A program made the translations under genes and the position numbers. This document shows, one piece after another, positions 31,984 through 46,250 of a stretch of 64,000 bases of DNA. The notes beneath the pieces are model-generated. The model saw nothing but the letters and a program-made list of their open reading frames with translations. It did not search any database and had not been told where the DNA came from. The stretch's first letter is position 1, and each line of letters begins with the position of its first letter. Origin of the DNA: Xylographa opegraphella (taxonomy: Eukaryota); the NCBI GenBank assembly GCA_022813865.1, contig JALDZX010000001.1, forward strand, positions 496,001-560,000, in the 5' to 3' direction.

Positions 31984-33081
31984 TCACGAATCATCCAGGC
32001 CCTCATACAACGGTACTCCCCAGTTCTTACTTGGATTATTGAACCGGTGCAGATACTTCTTCCCTACTTCCTCGATCTTCTTGAACCCCTCATAACCCAT
32101 CACACATTCCCTGGCTCCGAAGTTCTCGCTGATCCGCTCCTTGTGCTGGCTCTTCGGGATCACGCTCGTCCCTCTGCTCATGCCCCACGCCAGCGCCACC
32201 GTGGCCGGCGTGCAGCCGTTCTCCTTTGCGATATCGTTGATGACCGTGTTCTCAAGCAGCGCCGGCGTGGAACCCTTCTTCGGGCCCCCGTAAGTGGGAT
32301 TGGAGTTCGCGAGTGGCGAATACGCCGTGACATGGATACCGTGGTTGTAATGCCACTGCACCCAGGCGGTTTGCTGCAGGTACGGGTGCAGCTCCATCTG
32401 ATGAGCGAAGGGGGTGATCTTGGATTTTGCAATCAGATTCTCTAGCTGGGCGGGTGAGAAATTGGAGACGCCGATATGGCGGACTTTGCCGGTATGCAGC
32501 AGCCGCTCCATGGCGTGCCATGTCTAGAATCTGATCAGTACTTTAGGCAGAGGCAGGGAGTAAAGCTGGACTTACATCGATGTAGCCTAGCTTGTTGTTG
32601 CCGCTCGAGGGCGTTTGGGCGACGGGCCAGTGCATCAGATAGAGATCCAGGTAGTCAAGGCCAAGATCAGAAATGGTCTTCTCGAGGCCTTCGAAGACAA
32701 GGTCCGGGCGATGGCTAATGGTTATCAGCATGATTCCAGTAATGTACTACCTCGAAATCTGATGCGCACTTACTGGTCGTTCCACAACTTCGAAGTCACC
32801 CATATCTCAGAGCGCTTCAATCCAGCTTTCTTCAAGCCATCCGCAATGCCCCTACCCACTTCCTTCTCATTACCGTAGGCAGCTGCGCAGTCGATGTGAC
32901 GATAGCCAGTCTCAATGGCATACGATACTGCTTCCGACGCGTTCGACTTGTCAAGGTTCCATGTGCCGTATCCTAGAAGTGGTATCGACAGAGATGAGTG
33001 GGAGTTGAGGGAAATTTGTTGCTTTTGACTATTAGCCACTGGCAATGCCAGAGCAAGAGAGGCAACGCTCAGAAACTTCAT
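31984..33081 (-). CDS. Aldo-keto reductase (Gcy1/AKR1-like) with N-terminal signal-peptide-like extension
   Basis: 'GYGTW', '[14 protein letters not shown]', 'WVTSKLWN', '[12 protein letters not shown]', 'IGVSNF', 'VIPKS'. Introns 32715-32773 and 32524-32575. Confidence 0.92.
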
Positions 33082-33404
33082 TGTTAACTAATGGATAATT
33101 TAGTGAGCGATTGAAGAATACAAATCCTACTCTTATAAGGTCTCTCATTTCTCCGCATCTTTGGAGGTGATGTCATGCCTGATGGAAGCCCTCGTCCAAA
33201 GATATGCGGACGGAAGACCCCGCGACAGCTTCAGATAGCAGCACTTTAGCCGACAGTCGGCTCGTGCGAAGTACAATTACTTCAGCGACGGTGTATCAAT
33301 ATGTAAGATCATTGATACCAGATCATTTCAGAGGTCGAACTTCTCCAAATCTGTTGTATAGAAACAAATATAAACAGGGGTATATACATATTAACTTGAA
33401 AATC

Positions 33405-34271
33405 TCAACTCGAAGTAGTGGACGGCTCTTCATCATTGCCAAAACGTCGTCTTTCCATGGTTTCTAATAGCATATCTTTGTGGCCCGCCCAGTATTCTGT
33501 CAGATCCTCGAATGTCATGTTCCCAAATTCATTCCGTAGCCAGCAGTTCTCACATCTATTATTCTTTTCCAATTCCTGATTCTTTGCCTTGAGAGATTCA
33601 ACTTCTGCTCTCAGCATTCGATTACTGTCCTCCATCTGCTTCATGTAAGCGGTCGCGCTTGCAAGGATTTCCGCTTTTCGAGGCTTTTGAATCTTTGCCA
33701 GTTCCTCAAGATCGGGTCCATTGCAAAGTACTTTTCCGCTGGAGGCGGTCTTCGTTGAAGGGACGGCCTTCCGCAACATCTCGAATTTAGAGTTGAGGTT
33801 CTCGCGATATTTGCGCTCGACTTTGTTGTGGGAGGCTTTAGCTTGGCGATCGGAAAACGTGTCATGGTCGGAAGTATCTGAGGACCGCTTGAGTGAGCTA
33901 GGGATGAGGATCGGTTTCGCGTCGTAAGTACGTGCGCTGGGAAATGTCGTAAATTCTGGGTGCTTTTGGATCAGGTCAGGATACGTCTGAGAGTTGTAAC
34001 TCCATCGTGCATCTCCTTGAGGTTGCGCGCTGTTGTTTGCTTGGCATCGTGCCTGATAGCCATACATGTCATGGGGCGGTTCAGGGCCTCCTTGAAAACT
34101 GTGCACTGGGTCGTAGCAGCCAGGGCTCCAACAGGTGGTACCTGCTTTCGGTCGCGTCGGGCTCGAAACGTATGAGTCCTCTGTACCCACAGTGGAGGTG
34201 ATGGACGCGGTCAGAGAATTTGTACGAGGTGCTTCAGCCCAAGAACTGCTCAAAGAGTCCGAACTGGCCAT
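33405..34271 (-). CDS. bHLH-zip transcription factor, SREBP-type basic region, no TM domain
   Basis: 'KASHNKVERKYRENLNSKFEMLRKAVP...PRKAEILASATAYMKQME' plus zipper. Tyr in ERKYR is the SREBP hallmark. Confidence 0.88.
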   Translation of the reverse strand: MASSDSLSSSWAEAPRTNSLTASITSTVGTEDSYVSSPTRPKAGTTCWSPGCYDPVHSFQGGPEPPHDMYGYQARCQANNSAQPQGDARWSYNSQTYPDLIQKHPEFTTFPSARTYDAKPILIPSSLKRSSDTSDHDTFSDRQAKASHNKVERKYRENLNSKFEMLRKAVPSTKTASSGKVLCNGPDLEELAKIQKPRKAEILASATAYMKQMEDSNRMLRAEVESLKAKNQELEKNNRCENCWLRNEFGNMTFEDLTEYWAGHKDMLLETMERRRFGNDEEPSTTSS

Positions 34272-35300
34272 AGTCTCGAGGATAGGAGCTGAGTATGGTC
34301 CGAGGCTTTCTGCAGAATGAAACGCGAAATTCTAACATCGAATAATCAACTTTTGCCACAGTGTAGAGGTGATGTAAAGAGGGGTCGCATACCGATGGTG
34401 GGAACATATGTTGGCCATCGCTGGACAGGGTGAAGTCCTCGTCGGACTTCGAGGTCTGAAGCGACTACCCAGCACGACCATTGTTAGCCACCGCTCAGAA
34501 GTCACAAATATCTCTGCCCCATGGTCACATACATCCTTGATGAATTGTGTATTTAGAACAGCTCTCCGCCACGGCATGATGATTGTTGTGGGCCTGAGGC
34601 TCTGTCGTCGGCCACGTGGAGAACGTGGCCTGACGAGGGAAATCAGTGTGTACTCATCGAACGGAAACGTAACGCTATCGTGGTGCAGCCGGTTCCCCAG
34701 AGTTTTTCAGGGCGACGCTCACCCCCACCTCGCCAGCAAAGGTGGGAAAGATAAGTGAGACGCCACCAGAGGCCCGAAAATAGGTTGGGAATCTGGGAGG
34801 TCGGCCATCATCGCTTGTTGCAGCAAAACACAAGTCACGGGAAGTTTCTGCCGAAGCTTCAGAACGACGTTGCTTCGCCTGCTCGTCGCGTGGGAATCAG
34901 GGGTCTGCTGAGCACGCGCTCCGGCCTAGCGCTGGGGCTAGCTGGTCACGCCACTTTTCCACCCAATTATCAGAAGGCAGTGCGGCAGTTAGCAAGCCGA
35001 CTCTGTCTTAGCGGCCGAGGGCGGAACGGCGAGCAAGAAGTCTTAAATTGCCGGGAACTGCTAGTGTGCAGAATGCAGAATGCGGCATGCAGAAATAATT
35101 ATGCCTCAGCTTCAACGATTAGGTAAGTAATAATAATGATAATGATAATTGTTCGAACTGGACACCGGATATTAAGAGTCCCTTTAGTTATGTTTATGAA
35201 AAGTGTAGTGCTGCTCTAGGCGCCTTTCGAACTGAGAATCCCCAGAGATTGTGTGCCTATCACTGAAATCAAAGCTCGCCGGATACGCCCCCTTCCCAAA

Positions 35301-36300
35301 CTAAAGGCGAGCTTTGTCCAGCCGTATACCCGTCTCCTCAAACTTGATTTTCATACCTTCATTCAGAGCTTCTTGCAGAGCACACCCGATGCTGACAGCC
35401 TATACGGCGAATGTCAATCTGGGAGGCACTGTGGTGTCATCCAAGCATGCTACCGTAATTGCGTTGATCCCCGTCACAAACGCCTGTTCGAATCGACTCT
35501 AAAATGATGCGGGATTTTTCTTCCGATTCCATTTGTCTCGTATATGTGCCCCGGCATTCCTCGGGGTCTAGCATTGACCATCGATCTTCCTTCAGTTACA
35601 ATGATCTCGCTCATGTCGTGCTGACGAGCCGCCGTCATCAGCGACGAGTAAAAGTATGCAATCCTTCCGCCCCCAGAACTTCACAACCCCGACTCTGCTG
35701 TCAGCGTACTTTATACTTGCGCAAACCTTGCTGTACAGCTATGATGTCAAAGGTATCACCGGTATGACGACGCTGTCCTAGCAAGAGAATCACAAAGCTG
35801 GGAGAATGTCGTGAATGTTGCTTTTCACGAAGACCCCACCGGAGTACTTGATATACTTCATGAAGGATCGCGTTGGTTATAGCTTGTCGTACGTTTGACA
35901 GCGGAGCACAGAGGCATGCATAGGAAAGCCAGAGTCCCTTCGCTGAAAGGCAGCACGGTAGCACGCATCGAACCTTCTCAAAACCTCCCCCATGACCATG
36001 AGGCGCTGATGACTCTTCTCTGTATCGTCTACACATGAAGACTTTGTAAGTCAATTTCATCAGAATTGAGCCTGGGCGAGTGATCATACTACTTATTTGC
36101 GGCTTTTCGCAAAGAACGTGCTTGTTCGCCTCCATTGCTTGATAGCTTGTTCTGCATGTATGGTTGTGACGGTGCTGATCACCGTAGCCTAGCAGTCCGG
36201 GGTTCTCCAACATCTTATCGTAGCTTGCGTATATGGTCACTCCGTTTGGTTCCAAGAGCTGTCTGGCTCACCAAGATCTCCGCTTCGTCGGGCATGAAAG
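35301..36300 (-). pseudogene. Pseudogene of Gfo/Idh/MocA myo-inositol 2-dehydrogenase-like oxidoreductase
   Basis: Collinear motifs across several frames: 'LEPNGVTIYASYDKML', 'HAEQAIK', 'KHVLCEKP', 'RRFDACYR', 'SVLRCQTYDKL*', 'SGGVFV..NIHDI', 'RIAYFYSS', 'RFEQAFVT', 'IGCALQE...ETG..DKARL*'. At least 4 in-frame stops and several frameshifts. Rossmann N-terminus not found. Confidence 0.85.
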
Positions 36301-36410
36301 CTACACAATCTCGTCACCCAAATTCTGGCTAAATCATGATCATTGATAACGAGTTACGACGACGCTGCGCGTAACTTATAAGGTGTAGTCATTACACAAC
36401 CAAAGACTTT

Positions 36411-37614
36411 TCAGTCCTTGCCATCCATCTCAATGACCACCTTCAGTACCAAATTACCTTCTTCATCTACAGTCCTGGCGGCCATTTCAAATGCCTTCTG
36501 CGCGTGCTGCAAACCATGGAACCGATGCGTAATCAGTGTTCTTGGATCCGGCGTATCTGATCTCCTTTTCGACAACAACTCTATACCAGAAGCATAAGTA
36601 TTGACATATCGGAACACTCCACATAAATCTACTTCACGCAGCGCGGCAGCAGAAATCGGTAGCGTCTGTATAGGAGTGCCCATCCCCACAAGCATGATGC
36701 GTCCACCAGGTTTCGTGATATAGATGGCCGCTTGCACACATGACTCTACGCCAGTGCACTCAAATACCACGTCTACCTCTGCAATCGTATTTCCTGTAGC
36801 GGTTGCTGTTTGTGAAATATTCAACGCCGTCTCCTTTGCAATAGCAAGCTTCTCCTTGATACTTTGGCCACGCTTCGATGAAACAACATAACTATGATCA
36901 GCGAAACCATTCTTTGTTGCGAAGTCCACGCGTCCTTCATCGATGTCGGCTATGATGACTACGCTGGCACCCGCCTCTTTTGCCATGTAGGCACATAACA
37001 GACCAACCGCGCCGGCTCCAAAAACCAGCACCGAAGCCTTCATGGGTATCTGAGCTCTTCTCGATGCATGTGTAGCGACTCCTAAAGGTTCTAATATGGC
37101 TCCCTCATCGTATGACATAGCGCTAGGGAGTTTGTAACACCACTTGGCTGGATGATTGATTTTTTCCTGTAGAGTTCCTTGAAAATGCGGAAAGATCTTG
37201 GCAGAGCTCCGGAATCGCATAGTCTTGCAGAGGTTGTATCGTCCATTGCTACAGGACTCACATTCTTCACAAGGCAATCCGACTTCGAGAGCTACTTTGT
37301 CTCCGACCTGAAAGTTCCCTCCCTCTCTGCCCACTGCCACTACCTCGCCGGCTGATTCATGTCCTAGTGCCAGAGGCTCTTTCACAATGATATCTCCATT
37401 TCGCCCATGGTTGTAGTAGTGCAGATCAGATCCACAGAGGCCAGTCGATCTTATGGCTAGTTGTAGCTCCGTCGCCGCTGGAGGTGGTAGACTTCGTATT
37501 TCCTTGTCAGCACTGTCAACTTAGTAGGAATACCGATACAGTGGGTGACACTGTACTTACGATCCTCAAGTCCTTAGGTCCATGGAGGACCAGCGCCGGA
37601 ACTGAAGTATCCAT
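36411..37614 (-). CDS. Zn-dependent MDR polyol dehydrogenase (sorbitol/xylitol/L-idonate 5-dehydrogenase-like)
   Basis: Exon 1 'MDTSVPALVLHGPKDLRI', intron 37503-37560, 'GLCGSDLHYY', 'LGHESAG', structural Zn 'CEECESC...YNLC', 'VFGAGAVG...IADID' (NAD-type). Intact. Confidence 0.92.
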
Positions 37615-37897
37615 CTGGATGCTTTAACAATGTGAAGCTAGCAAGTAATTACGAATTGAGGTTACAATTGAAACAATGCAAAGGACTCCGCTACAGCAAC
37701 TCTAATTGATGGAGAAATTGGACCGAGGACGTTTAGATAGCACTAAGCCATGAAACCCTTATCGATAAGAATGTACCGAGCCTCAACGTCTTTAATCCCA
37801 TCCTCCAAATGGGACAGCCGAAATCATGAAATAAATCCATTCATACGTCTCGTATCGAACCATTGAGACATTGACAATCGAGCTTATCGCGGCGATT

Positions 37898-38738
37898 ATG
37901 GCATCCATTCAGCAGTTGTTCTCTCTGGAAGGCCAGACCGCTCTGGTCACTGGAGGCACGCGAGGCATTGGCCAAGCAATGGCGATTGCGCTTGCTGAGG
38001 CCGGAGCAGACATTGTTCTCGTTCAGGTACAAGTGAAGGTGCCTCAGTCACAAAGCAAGACTGATTCCCCGTTAGTAGAGAGATACCACAAATCAGACCA
38101 CCAAAACCTCCATTGAAAACTTAGGTCGCAAAGCGACCATATTTGTTGCAGATCTGGCATCTCACTCGGCGGTGTCGAGCTTAGTATCTGAAATACTGCG
38201 ACAGATACCGCGCATCGATATTCTGCTGAATTGCGGAGGTATTCAGCGTCGTCATCCATCGCACCAGTTTCCTGATGCAGATTGGAATGAAGTTCTGCAA
38301 GTGAACCTGACGACTGTTTTCACGCTGTGTCGGGACGTGGGCGCGCACATGCTTCTGAATGAGCCACATGCGGTGACTGGGAAACGTGGATCTATAATCA
38401 ACGTTGCGTCCCTGCTCTCGTTTCAGGGAGGTCTCACCGTGCCAGCTTATGCAGCATCGAAAGGGGGAGTTGCTCAGCTGACGAAGGCGTTGAGTAATGA
38501 GTGGGCTGGGAAAGCCGTCAATGTTAATGCTATCGCGCCAGGATATATTGCCACTGAGATGAATACAGCACTGATGAACGATGAGAAGCGGGCGGAGAGC
38601 ATATTGGTTAGGATCCCAGCTGGAAGATGGGGGAATCCTGAGGACTTCAAGGGTGCTGTAGTCTTTCTGGCCAGTAAGGCGAGCACTTATGTGAGTGGTG
38701 AGATCCTGACTGTCGATGGAGGGTGGATGGGAAGGTAG
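37898..38738 (+). CDS. Classical SDR, KduD / 5-keto-gluconate reductase (IdnO)-like
   Basis: '[19 protein letters not shown]', intron 38027-38078, 'NCGGIQRR', '[19 protein letters not shown]' (YxxxK), '[10 protein letters not shown]', 'VDGGWMGR'. Intact. Confidence 0.92.
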
Positions 38739-38851
38739 TAAGCCAGAGATGTACAGGGCTTTGTGTTGTTGCCAGTCCTAAACTCCAATCTTATTTCAAA
38801 GCTATGACACGTTAACTAGATATCCTTAATAAGAGCTTCACATCTCATCTA

Positions 38852-38930
38852 CCAGAGTTAGCTCAATGGTTAAGCGTGGCTGCTATAGAGCACCATGACA
38901 CAAGGTCCTGGTTTCGAATCTCGGTGAGCG
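38852..38930 (+). ncRNA. Degenerate tRNA-like element (tRNA pseudogene or SINE head), isotype uncertain
   Basis: A-box-like TAGCTCAATGGTTAAGCG (38859-38876) and B-box-like GGTTTCGAATC (38910-38920) at tRNA-like spacing. Acceptor and T stems do not pair properly. Confidence 0.55.
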
Positions 38931-39091
38931 TGGCTGAAAACCCATGTGCTTGCATAGGCAGCACAAAAGACCGTTACGTTCTGTTGACTTTGTAGTAAAA
39001 TCACTCATAGTACAGCGATTTTCATAAGATACCTCCGGGTATCTGAACTTTTTGATCTTTTAAAGGCTTATTGACTAACAATATGTAACAC

Positions 39092-40280
39092 ATACTAGCA
39101 ACTCATGAGCTCAGCAGCATAAAAACAAGTATGAAATTTATTGATTTTATCCTGCAATCATCGTCTGAAGCGGTACTACCTCTCATTCCCGATCCATACT
39201 GTTGGCAAGCAAATACATTCGCTAGCACTCACTGTCCAATGATCAGACCATGCGCGAGCGCCTAGACCAACCTGGCTACTATTTGATCATATCGTGTATT
39301 TAAACCTCATCGACCAGCGCCAAGTAATTTGGTTGCTGTATGTGTTAGTTTTATGTTTCTCAATAGAGGACATACACGCATTTCAAGCTCCTCCAAACCT
39401 GCGACACCGTCACTTTCGCTGCAAAAAAGCATAAGGCTTGAAAGCCTCAAAAGTCTTCAACATCTTCATGTCCTATTCATCTGCGAAATGGTAGTATGCT
39501 CCTGCCGAATGCCAAGGGGTAAAAGCAGTGATACAGCAGGGCTTCATTAAGAAGAGTTGAGCTATGCGGTCTCATAGTAATCAGCCAACTCGGTGGGTTT
39601 AACTCTCTGATGTACTATTCCTCAACACTCTTCATACCGTCGAGTTCTCGAGTACAGTATCTATTGGCACAGTGTTTTGCTGCGATGAATATCAACTGGG
39701 AGTAGAGTCTTGTGGGTCCTGCCTTTAGACTCCACCTAATTTCTTCCAGTAACCTTATGCTCTTTGAGAGAATTGGCAGAAGCAGAATATTTTTATGCAC
39801 AATAAGGGCAATGGCATGGTTCGCCGCGCTGGCAGCAATAACCTCCCACTGAATTTCCGTCCATCATGACTCAGATCTTGTGAAAGCAACCGTTGGCTGA
39901 TTTGCAGATGTCGCTTTGGTTGACATGAGTTTTGGGTAGTCCTCTACTCAAGCGGCGCGGGTATCACAAGAAGCACAAGCTGCTACTTGCGCAGGCCGAA
40001 ATGACATGCTGGGGATCCAAGGTTATTGTTCCGAGTACACTCCTGACACAGATGGGGAATACTATAACCTTGGGTGCATTATGGTATTAATGCAGCCATC
40101 TGTTTCTTCGGATTGCGTTGCTGTGTACTTCTGTTATCCCGAAGTCAAGGGAATTGTCCTAGCTCAGAGGACATCCACGAAGTCTTCCAACATGGCTTTA
40201 ACATTCAATGGCCAAAAGTACAAGCGGAAATGAAGCTGAAGAAGAAATATAACTGCAACTCTAAGGTAGTTAGGATTTGA
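39092..40280 (+). pseudogene. Pseudogene of MFS sugar porter, ITR-type myo-inositol transporter
   Basis: Collinear fragments 'CGLIVISQLGGFNSLMYYSSTLF', 'ERIGRSRIFLCT', 'LYSSG', 'MTCWGS.VIV.STLLTQM', 'AAICFFG', 'VYFCYPEVKG', 'EDIHEVFQHGF', with frameshifts and stops. The N-terminal half is largely unrecognisable, so the start is approximate. Confidence 0.85.
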
Positions 40281-40778
40281 AGGTCTAGGAATGGCTTCTA
40301 TCCACACAATGTACTATTCATGTAACGTACAAGGCCAGAAGAATATCCTCGTTATGGAATAATTTATATTGGGACACGTAGGAATGAATCAGTACAGATG
40401 TACATATCCCTAAGTATGGCATCGAAAGTCAATTAATTGATATACCTACAAATCTTACTAGATTTCAAGCACCAGAACCTGTAGGAAAGCATCACCACAC
40501 ACGCTGATGACCACATCCGACAGCACTTGCGAGATTAAGAGGATGCTGTGGCTTAGTTGAAATATTGAGGGGGGGAACTATCCTAATCAGAGCAAGAAAG
40601 TTGAAAGTTATTCCAGATTCTGCTCTACTAGAATCGGATAAAGGTTATTGCGGATAGCGGGCGCTAAAAACAAAAGCGCTCATGGCGGAGTTTAGATGAC
40701 ATTCGCAGATATGAGGCACGCTATGCAGTTGTTGCTCCGTTAATACCCATTGTGATTTCAAAAAGTTGACGGCCGACG

Positions 40779-41249
40779 ATGTTATTTTTCAGGTAATTAT
40801 GACTGATTGAATCTTCTCAGTAAAAAACAGTATTGATGTAGCACAGTTTCTTTAAGACACTTGTGGACCACGAAGTCACGGTTGAGCTTAAAAATGATAT
40901 CGCTATTCGCGGGACGCTGAAATCTGTCGATCAATTTCTCAATATCAAACTAGATGACATACAAGTTGTCGAAGAATTGAAATATCCACATCTGGTCAGT
41001 TGCAAGAATCTTATATAAAAACTGTGGCTTTTGAGCATTGCTGACCAGCCCCATTATTAGTCTTCGGTCAAGAACGTCTTCATACGCGGAAGTGTGGTTC
41101 GCTATGTTCATCTACCCGGGGCAGCGGTAGATACAGCATTACTGGAGGATGCCACACGGCGGGGTAAGTAAGTCTGCTGGCTGCAGTCAAACGATACTGA
41201 TAAGTCTTGACTTGTAGAAGCGGCCCAGCAAGCTTCAAGGGCTCGATGA
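40779..41249 (+). CDS. LSM2: U6 snRNA-associated Sm-like protein LSm2
   Basis: Exons 40779-40792, 40847-40994, 41061-41163 and 41218-41249 give MLFFSFFKTLVDHEVTVELKND...GTLKSVDQFLNIKL...FIRGSVVRY...LLEDATRREA. Not in the ORF track. Confidence 0.96.
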
Positions 41250-41774
41250 TTTCCCGACTTTACGACTCAGGTTCAAAGGGAACAGGTGAAGACTATCAAG
41301 GTGTCCAGATTTGTTCCTGAAACTGAGCTTGAACTCCAAATTCAACCAAACACCTTCAGGTGGCAAGAGTCTTTTGACCAGCCTCAGGCTCATATGTAGA
41401 TTGTGAGAACGCTATGCTGTCGAAAAGCATCTCCTGAGCCCCTTTGTCCTAGGAAGGCGGCACGCGTGTTTTGACGCATAGCATTAGAACAAGGAGAAAT
41501 AGAATTCTCACTGTAGAGGACAAAAAAACAATAGCAGTATACAACCCTCTTTCCATCAGCTCCATATAGTCTCTACATAGAGACTTGTGTACTAAGAGGG
41601 AAAGTTAAGGTACCCGAATTTCATCCCATGCCAAGCCTGGAAACTAGGGAAACCCGTGATCGCGCGTAGCCGGCAACGCCTCCAGATCTGCTCAATGCTC
41701 ATGAATTTCAACAGCCCAAATCTAAGTCGCCGCTCAGACAACTGCGGAACTTTCTTGATGTTGACACATCTGAC

Positions 41775-44652
41775 ATGTTTCGAAAGCCCCGCGAACAGTC
41801 GACAACCACTTCAGGTTCCCCGCTAAGACCATCCACAGGACGACCGCCCACGCCTCCCTCGGCAGGTCTCAAGTCAACCGCATCCTCGGCAATCAAGAAT
41901 GTCACAGTCATGTCCAATCGAGCACTACCAGTACTAGGTAGTTCGCAAACGACTGTAAGGAGCTCTGGGTTGAATCGAAATAATGTAGCGGGGAAGCCAA
42001 AAGGGAAACCAAATGGGAGCATTTTGAGTTTCTTCAAAAAAGTGGAATCTACACAGAGATCTAGTGACATTGTGACAGAAGAAGAGAGTAGTCTCTTCTT
42101 TGAGGATGTCAAGGCCCCAAGGGAAAGACATACCCCCACACAGACACCCACCCCGCCACGGGATGCTGGGGATATATTTTTAGACGAGTCTACGACACGA
42201 TACAACGAAGATACCTTCCCATCGAAGCGTCGGCGGACAAACGAAGTTGCTCGGACGGTATCAGAGGATATTGAGCACCACCAGATAGTATTTCCTAGCC
42301 AAAATAATCCCGATCGCATGAGAAGATGCGTTACCGAGGTCGTGTCGCCAGAACTGACAAGACGGGTTTCTTCTTTGGATCCCGCTACAGAAGATACCCC
42401 AGGCGAAAACACTGAAGACCAAAGCATGCGCTTAGAAGGTTTGCGTCATGAAGCTGAAGTTGGGCCTCGCTCGTCAACCGGTCCATTCGTCGAAGATTCA
42501 GAAAGCGAGGATGAGATGATCAAGCATCTCACCAAAACAGCATTCAGTGGTACAACGACACCCAGTGAGCTGATGGTAGGCGGGCAGTTGCCAATGGAGG
42601 TGGTCGAACATGCATCCGAAGAGTACAGTATTCCAGTTCTTCCTACGCTCAACCCAGATGCAACCAGCATTGTGGGTGGAGATGGATTTGATGGGATGGA
42701 TGACTTTATTGACGACGAATTTCCTGCTGATGGGGAAGAATATATGGAACGGGTATGGATGGATGAACAAGAAGGTCTGGAGTTTGGCTTGGAAGAGAAC
42801 AAGACGGACCAGGATTTGTTGGATATGAAGGACAAACTCATTAACGACACAGCAATTGCCTCTGCAGAATCTCTTGACACAGAGGCCTGCCCAATCTGCA
42901 GCCTAAGTTTGGCAGGTGTTCCATCCGAGGTAGGTTTTCCCTCGGTTGTGCTGCAAAGTCGTGTAATACTTATAGTAAGTATAGGCCGCATCTGTACATG
43001 TCAATAATTGCTTGGATGGTCGCCCAACCCCGCTTCCTCTTTCTAATATCTCAATAAAGAAGGAAGAAAACAATATCAATGGCCTCGCTCCGTCATCGCA
43101 CAAGCGCTTCCTGCGTGCGGCGATTGCCAGGCCTGGCCAAAGCAACCCTTTCACCTTCACTTCCCCGGAAGTAAGTCACTCATCGGCGTTTTCGAAATTG
43201 ATGTCCTCTCATGCCGAAGATGCGGCGTGGGCCACAGCTGCGGCAGCCGAAACAGCTTCAAGGGGCAAGCCGGCTTTCCAGCGTATCTGCCCCTTTTACA
43301 AGATTTTACCTGGATTTTTTACTTGCGTGGATGCTTTTCGCTACGGAGCAGTTGAGGGTTGCAATGCGTACTTCCTGAGCCACTTCCATAGCGATCATTA
43401 TATCGGTCTTACTTCTTCTTGGTGCTACGGTCCAATATATTGCAGTCATGTTACAGCAAATCTTGTGAGACGACAACTTCGCGTGGATCCAAAATGGGTG
43501 GTAGACTTGGAATTTGACTCCAAATTTGAAATACCGGGCACTCAAGGAGTTGAAGTAACAATGATACCCGCAAACCATTGCCCGGGAAGCTCTCTCTACC
43601 TCTTTGAGAAGTCTATCGGGAAAGGAAAAAGCCCGAAGGTTCAGCGCGTGCTTCATTGCGGTGACTTTCGGGCTTGTCCAGCTCATGTGCAACATCCTCT
43701 TCTACGTCCTGAAGTAGTCGACGTTGTTACCAGCAAGAACGTTGGCCAACAAAAGCTTGATGTTTGCTATCTCGACACCACATACCTAACACCGAAGTAC
43801 GCCTTTCCAAGTCAGGAAGAAGTGATAAAGGCATGCGCAGACATGTGTGTAAGTCTAAGCAAAGACAAGGTAGACGAAACAGACGACTGGGAGCAGACCA
43901 AGAAAGAGCGAGCCGGTAGCGGTATGGTAAAGTTTGTTCGCAAAGAATCCGAGACTGTTAAGGAAGAGCTATGTGAAGACGACGTTGACGCGATGAAGGT
44001 CAATATGAAAGCTGGATCAAAAGTTCGAGGACGTCTCCTGGTGATCGTCGGAACTTACAGTATCGGGAAAGAGAGGATATGTCTCGGCGTAGCTAAAGCA
44101 CTGGATAGCAAGATCTACGCTCCACCCAACAAACAAAAGATCTGCGCCGCGCTCGAGGACCCTGAGCTTATGGCTCGCCTTACGAACGACCCCTTAGAAG
44201 CCCAAGTACATATGCAGATGCTCATGGAAATCCGAGCAGAAACATTAGCAGATTATCTTACCGGATACAAACCGCATTTCTCGCGGATTGTGGGCTTTAG
44301 GCCATCTGGATGGAACTATCGGCCCCCTAACAGCCGCTTCGTGGAGTCGCCAGCGGTGCAAACCGTGCTATATTCGGATAATTGGAAATCGAGATACTCC
44401 ATGGCAGAGTTGGTCCCGCAACGAGGCAGCACACGGGAAGCTAGTTGCTTTGGAGTTCCGTACAGTGAGCACAGCAGTTTCCGAGAGTTGACGATGTTCT
44501 GTTGTGCATTACGGATCGACAAAATCATCCCTACCGTCAATGTCGGGTCGGCTAAGTCGAGGGAGAAGATGAAGTCGTGGTGTGAGAAGTGGGCGATGGA
44601 GAAGAAGAAGAACGGGTTATTTAAGGTGGCTGATGGACAGACCGCCTGGTAG
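41775..44652 (+). CDS. PSO2: DNA cross-link repair nuclease Pso2/Snm1 (UBZ + MBL/beta-CASP)
   Basis: 'CPIC...HVNNCLDG' across intron 42930-42984, 'FLSHFHSDHYIGL', 'ANHCPGS', 'HCGDFR', 'YLDTTY', 'VPYSEHSS', 'IIPTVN'. Confidence 0.95.
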
Positions 44653-46250
44653 AAATATGTATGATTGTACGTGGCCCAAACGAGTATACTACTTAATGCA
44701 TTGGTTCAAAAGACAGCATTTTGTGATAATCACTGTCGAATGGAAAGCAAAATTACGCTTCGGGTGCAGTCCACATTCGATCGAGACTGCCTTCGTACGT
44801 GCGTCTTCTCAATACCCTACAGCCTAGAGTCTCGCCCGGAACTCGAAGCTCGTGGAAAGCATTTTTCTGCTATTCCCCTTAGAAGCCGCGCATGTATCAG
44901 CCACTTGAGAAAAGCCGCGAAGCAATGGAGACTATGATATGTTTCCTTGGTGTAGTGTGCTATAAACGAGGAGCTGAATCTGAATCTCATGCAGTCTGCT
45001 TCGCGCTGCCATGCAAACCTTGAACACGGAACCTTTCTCTTTTCATGCCAGGGTTTATAGAATTGTTCTCTTACCCTTGCCCCTTCGTAAATCCAATCAG
45101 GTCTACCTTCATCGTGGATATCCCCCTTACATCTCCGGTCTCATACCGCCGGCTTTAGGTTTAAAAGCTATCAGTGACAAGCATGCCAAGATCTGAGTCC
45201 TGCCTAACCCGTTCTCGTGATGTGTCTGCGCGATCTGGTTTCGAACAATTCGAACGCTGATTTTATTTCGAAAGCGCCCGATGCTGAGCAGTCAGAGAAC
45301 GGCATGACATTTGCCGGAGATAGTGAAGTTGCTGGCACAGACCTTGTGAAAACTGCTTGATCGAAGGCCGCTATGTATAGTTACGGGACACTCTCGTTAA
45401 GAGGACCCAAGATATGAATGGGGTTAAAAGAGAAATTGGAGAAGATGTGACGAGTGAAAGTGTATATCATTTATGGCGGCTATGAGTACAGGTCTAGCTG
45501 GAGACGAGTGTTCTGCAACAGTTCTTAGATTGTTAAAAGTCAGCTCTTCAAAGATATTGTTACAATGCCTCAGCCAACGATCGTTTCTATACATCAATGC
45601 CACGGCAGTGTCATCGCACGGCCGCCATTCACGCTTCCATCCTCGCAGATACCCTTAGCTCTAGCGCTCCCCATTCTCTCCGACCCCTATGTAGGATACG
45701 ATCTGATCATTGTTTCTCCGAATCCCGCCTGGTGAAGGTCATGGTATATTGCAGAAGACCTAGACACAGAGTTTCAGCACCAGGTCGAGGGCCAACGCGT
45801 CGAGAATGGAGGGAGAAAAATGCCGAAGGCGGGTTGAATTCTCCAACATCTGAGTGACTTCTCTTTAGCGGACGTCAACCCACAACCCAGACCCCTTCCG
45901 CCTCCCATGCTTTTATCCATAGTCCCAGCCGGGCCGAGCCGTACAACGAGAGAATAGCCCCGTCTACGTCTTAGGGCTCGTCATGGCCGACCCAGGATCC
46001 GCGCCTCTCCAGCACAAGTTTCTGCTGTAGTTCTGGTGCCTTTGTTGTACTACTTACTACTATGGGTAATCATAAGTGCTGTCCCTCGGCTTGAATGTCA
46101 ATCCATGCCGTCCGGCCCGAAGATTACTAGTTGCGAAACTGCGGCCCTCGGGCGGCTTGTCCTAGACTGAAGCCATTAATTATAAGTCGCAGGCTACGTC
46201 GACGGGTACGCTCGCTTCGCTTAACAGCGCAATGGTCGAAAGCAGCACTG

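Follow-up and report, generated by a model that had tools for sequence, protein, structure and literature searches.

The locus described here spans positions 35301..40280 of a 64,000-nucleotide stretch (the window) of the genome of the lichen-forming fungus Xylographa opegraphella (GenBank assembly GCA_022813865.1, contig JALDZX010000001.1, positions 496,001 to 560,000 of the forward strand). It holds an intact, divergently transcribed gene pair encoding a zinc-dependent medium-chain dehydrogenase/reductase (MDR) and a short-chain dehydrogenase/reductase (SDR), together with decayed remnants of a Gfo/Idh/MocA oxidoreductase (hereafter Gfo), a myo-inositol oxygenase (MIOX), and a sugar porter. 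The locus is probably the residue of an inositol-to-gluconate cluster that has lost its inositol arm and kept the lower part of the D-glucuronate pathway in its known role. A preliminary description of this DNA had recognized four genes; gene models and Pfam matches (ADH_N/ADH_zinc_N on the MDR, adh_short on the SDR) bear out their positions and the intact head-to-head pair 283 bp apart, but the gene list was incomplete, as the MIOX remnant and a repeat of approx. 205 bp resembling a short interspersed nuclear element (SINE) had been overlooked. The features are as follows:

35301..36392, reverse strand: Gfo/Idh/MocA (inositol-dehydrogenase-like) pseudogene, alignable from approx. 36312 (residue 32) to the stop
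36411..37614, reverse strand: intact Zn-MDR, probable member of the IddA/GluE clade, 2 exons, 381 amino acids
37503-37560, reverse strand: MDR intron, 58 bp, AAG acceptor
37615..37897, no strand: divergent intergenic region between MDR and SDR, 283 bp from ATG to ATG, presumed shared promoter
37898..38738, forward strand: intact SDR, probable member of the KgrA/GluF clade, 2 exons, 262 amino acids
38027-38078, forward strand: SDR intron, 52 bp
38854..39060, forward strand: tRNA-derived SINE-like dispersed repeat, approx. 205 bp, with A box, B box, and terminal T run
39276..39563, reverse strand: MIOX pseudogene, 3' remnant from approx. residue 240 of 335, last intron and last exon kept
39553..40280, forward strand: sugar-porter (ITR-like) pseudogene, C-terminal half only, aligned to approx. 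40250
39553..39565, no strand: junction of the back-to-back remnants, MIOX running from 39560 (reverse) and the transporter from 39553-39565 (forward)

The MDR and SDR gene models are 100% identical to two database proteins (P0001 and P0121), entries of X. opegraphella named MMC26_000176 and MMC26_000177. Across 26 aligned MDR sequences, the zinc ligands (C41/H66/E67 and C96/C99/C102/C110) are invariant, as is D204, the acidic residue that selects NAD. The SDR contains the YxxxK motif and carries arginine both in its glycine motif and after β2, where an acidic residue is absent. Under established rules for SDR enzymes, such an arginine pattern without the acidic residue denotes a preference for NADP(H), which suggests that this is the cofactor of the SDR. 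Within the MDR intron, a CAG lies 10 bases before the AAG acceptor, and splicing at this CAG would cause a frameshift; the same 381-amino-acid length and the same splice junction occur in three congeners, and the database model agrees. A contig of sequencing run X1 covers positions 33000-45000 with 0 differences, although X1 is possibly the source of this DNA and hence not independent; runs X2 and X3 provided no usable coverage here. The region between the two start codons is presumed to serve both genes as a common promoter.

The flanking genes are clearly decayed. The Gfo pseudogene shares 200 of 320 aligned residues with the intact protein P0242, and its frameshift-aware alignment scores 808, compared with a maximum of 39 in 20 shuffles. 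Its coding sequence is interrupted by 4 stops and its frame breaks at 8 points, one of which coincides with a retained intron; it is a decayed ortholog of a gene still intact in a congener. Its first alignable residue lies approx. 100 bp from the MDR stop. In 8 related loci that share this gene order, approx. 740-950 bp separate the end of the MDR from the start of Gfo; thus, the Gfo promoter region has apparently been deleted. The MIOX remnant is recognized by its homology to the C-terminus of PF05153 and its syntenic position, the full-length domain being absent, so that it does not represent a functional MIOX. A whole-genome search with PF05153 gives a single match, at this locus (E 0.0036, under the curated cut-off). 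From 39560 downwards, 36 of 67 residues are identical to the MIOX of the lichen-metagenome locus L074 (score 132, shuffle maximum 41), and the last intron and exon are recognizable 3' of the aligned part, the exon match being weak when taken alone. The sugar-porter remnant (score 245, compared with a maximum of 34 in 8 shuffles) is disrupted by 2 stops and by frame breaks at 5 or more points. Its best homologs belong to PF00083, and its database matches include only PF00083 sugar porters and no named ITR; the ITR label is presumed from a motif. The genome's own Gfo and sugar-porter paralogs were rejected as alignment references, as they are too distant.

The transporter remnant begins approximately midway through the protein, precisely where the MIOX remnant begins on the opposite strand. 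In three flanking intervals, no remnant of either N-terminal half, of the aldo-keto reductase (AKR) of related clusters, or of their transcription factor scores above shuffles. Because both remnants abut in mid-gene and their N-terminal parts are absent from these intervals, the simplest inference is that one deletion took both 5' halves, their promoter, and the intervening region.

The ancestral layout can be read from other fungi. A metagenome scan yielded 489 related loci, of which the best 80 were retained; locus counts refer to these. Among the 51 informative loci (those with at least 1200 bp upstream), SDR and MDR stand head to head in 42; collapsing loci that share 90% nucleotide identity leaves 38 groups, of which 31 have this arrangement. 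An AKR is present in 25 of the 80 loci, MIOX in 20, Gfo in 16, and a fungal transcription factor in 9; no locus holds a sugar porter (0/80) or a 2-hydroxyacid dehydrogenase (0/80). In the 24 groups with a locus of at least 8 kb, the corresponding counts are 13, 10, 10, and 5. Of these groups, 9 hold both Gfo and MIOX, 1 has Gfo only, 1 has MIOX only, and 13 have neither (Fisher p 7e-5, a value inflated by relatedness and contig ends), and 4 groups have the AKR without Gfo and MIOX. In particular, locus L074 reads AKR-MIOX-SDR-MDR-Gfo, in the order and orientation seen in the window. The AKR is convergent on the MDR in 9/80 loci, the layout implied by Trichoderma reesei gene identifiers, and 4 of these also have the divergent SDR. 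Among the best 120 database matches per protein, MDR and SDR bear consecutive locus tags in nine other genomes (two Xylographa, Cryomyces, Coniosporium, Pycnora, Sarea, Alternaria, Plenodomus, and Zalaria). Gfo comes next in the tag run in X. bjoerkii (003938/39/40, with Gfo intact as MMC18_003940), Pycnora, and Coniosporium, and lies 1-2 tags off in Candelaria, Cryomyces minteri, and Umbilicaria.

MDR, SDR, and Gfo are therefore found together in many fungi. This co-location and the MIOX remnant uphold the earlier proposal of an ancestral cluster for inositol and sugar acids from which the entry steps disappeared while the redox core stayed, and the MIOX remnant makes the cluster's link to inositol stronger. 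The transporter, which had been taken for a conserved member, is not one, given its absence from the related loci. The fungal-specific transcription factor (PF11951; loci L039, L046, L054, L056-L059, and L062 among the nine) is a candidate regulator of inositol or glucuronate use. At L051-L053, L069, L096, L099, and L105, members of the MDR family have no SDR or other cluster gene nearby, and the pair is thus not universal. The enzymes are known, and the cluster layout is apparently unpublished: no description of a MIOX-IddA-KgrA cluster was found in a literature search that reached few subscription papers.

The 24 MDR family members cluster at 97/97, away from the genome's two paralogs of the sorbitol dehydrogenase family, which have long branches and which we take to be LadA-like and Xdh-like. 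The MDR and SDR appear to belong to the clades of Aspergillus niger IddA/GluE and KgrA/GluF, respectively, an assignment that is well supported but indirect, resting on synteny, protein termini, and a published ortholog table. In the table, iddA/gluE corresponds to NCU01905 (plus NCU07022)/TrC1351C, kgrA/gluF to NCU01904/TrC1352W, and garB to NCU01906/TrC1350W, so that the GluE and GluF orthologs are adjacent in Neurospora crassa and T. reesei (PMC13158570). The SDR fits a KduD-like classical SDR of approx. 265 amino acids with LFSL near its start, and both primer-encoded termini of gluF match: its C-terminus, GGWMGR, is the end encoded by the published primer P6, and 116/120 SDR homologs share this ending. 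IESGDD, the C-terminus encoded by the published gluE primer, is compatible with the KVVxE end of the MDR family. Moreover, many SDR homologs are annotated as 2-deoxy-D-gluconate 3-dehydrogenase, as GluF once was by mistake (PMC5814732). The pair had been put forward as a candidate for an undescribed module, a view that is not supported given its probable placement with characterized A. niger enzymes whose listed orthologs are adjacent in two other fungi.

The predicted core reactions run from L-idonate to 5-keto-D-gluconate (MDR, NAD+) and on to D-gluconate (SDR, NADPH), all substrates being deduced from homology. The parallel drawn earlier to Escherichia coli IdnD/IdnO holds for the chemistry but not for descent. 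The SDR obtains 320 bits with KduD but at most 231 with models of gluconate 5-dehydrogenase; for the MDR, sorbitol dehydrogenases are a closer match (E 1e-76) than a solved L-idonate 5-dehydrogenase (7e-35). All NCBIfam cut-offs are missed (PRK09880, 195/469, for the MDR; TIGR01832, 320/339, and PRK08085, 219/408, for the SDR). An MDR beside a 2-hydroxyacid dehydrogenase on contig C215 was rejected as a gluD-gluE pair, since it is LadA-like and the layout is tandem.

In A. niger, D-glucuronate is converted via L-gulonate and 2-keto-L-gulonate to L-idonate (GluC/GluD), then to 5-keto-D-gluconate (GluE, NAD+) and D-gluconate (GluF, NADPH); in these accounts, the enzyme oxidizing L-gulonate is not identified (PMC5814732, PMC5306355, PMC4870679, PMC6353982). 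The second step is still blank in the 2026 ortholog table (PMC13158570), and fungi are noted to take a different route for glucuronate (PMC12337341). Within this frame, the ancestral Pezizomycotina cluster would have used MIOX to turn myo-inositol into D-glucuronate and a Gar1/GarB-type AKR to reduce the latter to L-gulonate; unlinked steps would then lead to L-idonate, which the IddA-type MDR and the KgrA-type SDR would carry on to D-gluconate, with Gfo feeding other inositol isomers into myo-inositol. In the X. opegraphella lineage, the 5' halves of MIOX and the transporter would have been deleted, and loss of its promoter would have been followed by decay of Gfo. The AKR may have been lost in the same deletion, because in L074 it sits on that side of MIOX and a FastTree phylogeny places all 5 AKRs tested from this genome apart from the 17 cluster AKRs, whose clade has support 94.

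The pair would still take part in breaking down D-glucuronate of different origin, for instance that released from xylan, through an unlinked GaaA-like reductase. The assembly of this genome (G000) contains a GH115 α-glucuronidase gene (G000:C202:87293-88462, reverse strand; L153, L154), whose Pfam domain is matched in four pieces with no stops; GH67 has no match in the assembly. A GaaA-like gene lies on contig C113, to which Pfam assigns only PF01408. These genes, and the lack of acceleration relative to congeners, speak against the earlier suggestion that the core was repurposed, the GaaA label being presumed. Xylographa is reported to live on wood and to have a tested cellulase (PMC9098629). 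A further ITR-like sugar porter (G000:C195:332-1737, reverse strand; L135) is 36-42% identical to P0305; with this porter still present, the fungus could still take up inositol to make lipids.

Several points weigh against this interpretation. The GaaA label of the C113 gene is our own assumption from a motif, and orthologs of GluC and GluD are not established in the assembly. The assembly, in which no intact MIOX or Gfo ortholog was found, may be incomplete. Shared ancestry among the loci and truncation of contigs qualify the association of Gfo with MIOX. Orthology of the pair to A. niger GluE and GluF is indirect, being suggested by the table, the layout, and the termini, and the table gives N. 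crassa two iddA orthologs (PMC13158570). Furthermore, the neighbour of gluE in A. niger is gluD, with gluF at an unlinked site (PMC5306355, PMC13158570). N. crassa is reported to have the pair yet not to grow on D-glucuronate, and its NCU01905 mutant to be moderately impaired on L-arabinose; the pair can thus be retained for other reasons.

The role of Gfo bears directly on the ancestral pathway. Most likely it funnels other inositol isomers into myo-inositol, a role favoured because Gfo was lost together with MIOX. The nearest solved relatives of the intact ortholog are Lactobacillus casei inositol dehydrogenase structures (4MKX/4N54, E about 1.5e-59 to 3e-59), of which 4N54 is a scyllo-inositol dehydrogenase (PMC5969746), and the K101, D182, and H186 triad and motif III (GFSRRFD) are conserved in 24 Gfo orthologs. 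It is also conceivable, though unlikely, that MIOX-AKR-Gfo-SDR-MDR formed a near-complete inositol-to-gluconate pathway, in which Gfo, rather than being an inositol dehydrogenase, converted L-gulonate to 2-keto-L-gulonate (or on to L-idonate, or carried out an epimerizing step at C2); its loss would then have cut the pathway, and the pair would have been kept for something else. Among genes that between them cover the rest of the pathway, Gfo is the one oxidoreductase with no assigned step; the step left vacant in the 2026 table would suit it (PMC13158570), and the related loci offer no 2-hydroxyacid dehydrogenase for that step. Motif V reads AGQ, an invariant Gln taking the place of the expected Tyr or His/Arg/Lys, the position being read from the L. 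casei alignment; both published markers of inositol specificity, YGY or His/Arg/Lys (PMC9603128), are hence absent. The intact ortholog also falls under the IolG cut-off TIGR04380 (264 vs 355 bits), and the reported lack of growth of N. crassa on glucuronate is a further point in favour. In contrast, Gfo shares its loss with MIOX and the transporter, whereas the lower pathway persists, it follows MIOX rather than the AKR across loci, and its catalytic residues and structural relatives are those of inositol dehydrogenases. Leptographium procerum iolG, alike by gene type only, is induced by pinitol together with MIOX and iolT1 (PMC9788770). GluC was rejected as the identity of the Gfo gene, since GluC is a D-2-hydroxyacid dehydrogenase (PMC4870679).

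Alternatively, though we consider this rather improbable, the pair might owe its retention to a broad function in polyol or pentose metabolism (for example on L-arabitol, sorbitol, or lichen polyols) and not to one in sugar-acid breakdown. The MDR does belong to the sorbitol/xylitol/L-arabitol dehydrogenase family, 7 of its conserved sites are altered in all four Xylographa sequences, and the L-arabinose phenotype in N. crassa accords with a description of IddA as having a more diverse role. The genome, however, has dedicated genes that we presume to be LadA-like and Xdh-like, there is no acceleration specific to the window genes, and such a role leaves retention of the SDR unexplained. Moreover, the screen of GluF showed specificity for 5-keto-D-gluconate/D-gluconate (PMC5814732).

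Retention of the lower glucuronate pathway is consistent with the constraint on the pair. Changed conserved columns number 10/206 in the MDR (8-11 in congeners) and 4/160 in the SDR (2-5 in relatives), compared with 64/178 in the Gfo pseudogene, catalytic Asp182 included. At the lesion density of Gfo, approx. 21 lesions would be expected in the MDR and SDR reading frames, and 0 are seen (P about 5e-10). Judged from these substitution and lesion patterns, both genes appear to remain under purifying selection. That the pair is already functionless and merely not yet hit by a lesion is highly improbable in view of these counts and of the MDR length and junction shared with three congeners, even though splicing of the MDR intron depends on AAG, which is uncommon as an acceptor, and the terminal branch of the MDR is longer than that of its sister (0.11 vs 0.066).

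The SINE-like repeat lies between the SDR and the MIOX remnant and has 12 further matches at approx. 10 other places in the assembly, with 70-85% identity. It was rejected as a tRNA or Rfam RNA, as ARAGORN and Rfam gave no call. Outside the locus, positions 31984-33087 (reverse strand) encode an aldo-keto reductase with a hydrophobic, signal-peptide-like N-terminus that is unusual for its family. This gene was rejected as the cluster AKR, since it lies outside the cluster-AKR clade.

The clustering with MIOX suggests that what is called the fungal "glucuronate pathway" forms, in many Pezizomycotina, the lower part of inositol catabolism. The locus represents a natural knock-out in which two parts of the cluster come apart: an inositol arm comprising the transporter, MIOX, Gfo, and probably the AKR, and a retained lower arm consisting of IddA and KgrA. 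The intact Gfo of a congener offers a comparison. Its protein family might supply the one enzyme still lacking from the pathway or serve the use of scyllo-/chiro-inositol and pinitol. Inositol as the only source of carbon is predicted not to support growth of this fungus.

Comparable systems match the locus in different respects. E. coli IdnD/IdnO comprises an MDR and then an SDR for the same two predicted reactions, being analogous and not orthologous. L. casei IDH2 (PDB 4N54/4MKX) and IolG have the Lys/Asp/His triad and motif III in common with the intact Gfo ortholog, but motif V differs; moreover, the downstream iol genes of IolG systems are absent from fungi, as shown for L. procerum (PMC9788770). 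In that fungus, iolT1, MIOX, and iolG, which match the three pseudogenes of the window by gene type, are co-induced by pinitol, and MIOX is needed for the use of myo- and D-chiro-inositol; neither clustering nor steps after glucuronate are reported in the available text (PMC9788770). The closest parallel to the core is provided by A. niger GluE/IddA (NRRL3_00319) and GluF/KgrA (NRRL3_02652), likewise a Zn-MDR and an SDR of approx. 262-265 amino acids ending in GGWMGR, described in papers whose accessible parts make no link to a MIOX cluster (PMC5306355, PMC5814732, PMC13158570). The A. niger gluE gene has gluD as its partner, whereas here the MDR and SDR share a presumed promoter beside the remnants of MIOX, Gfo, and a transporter.

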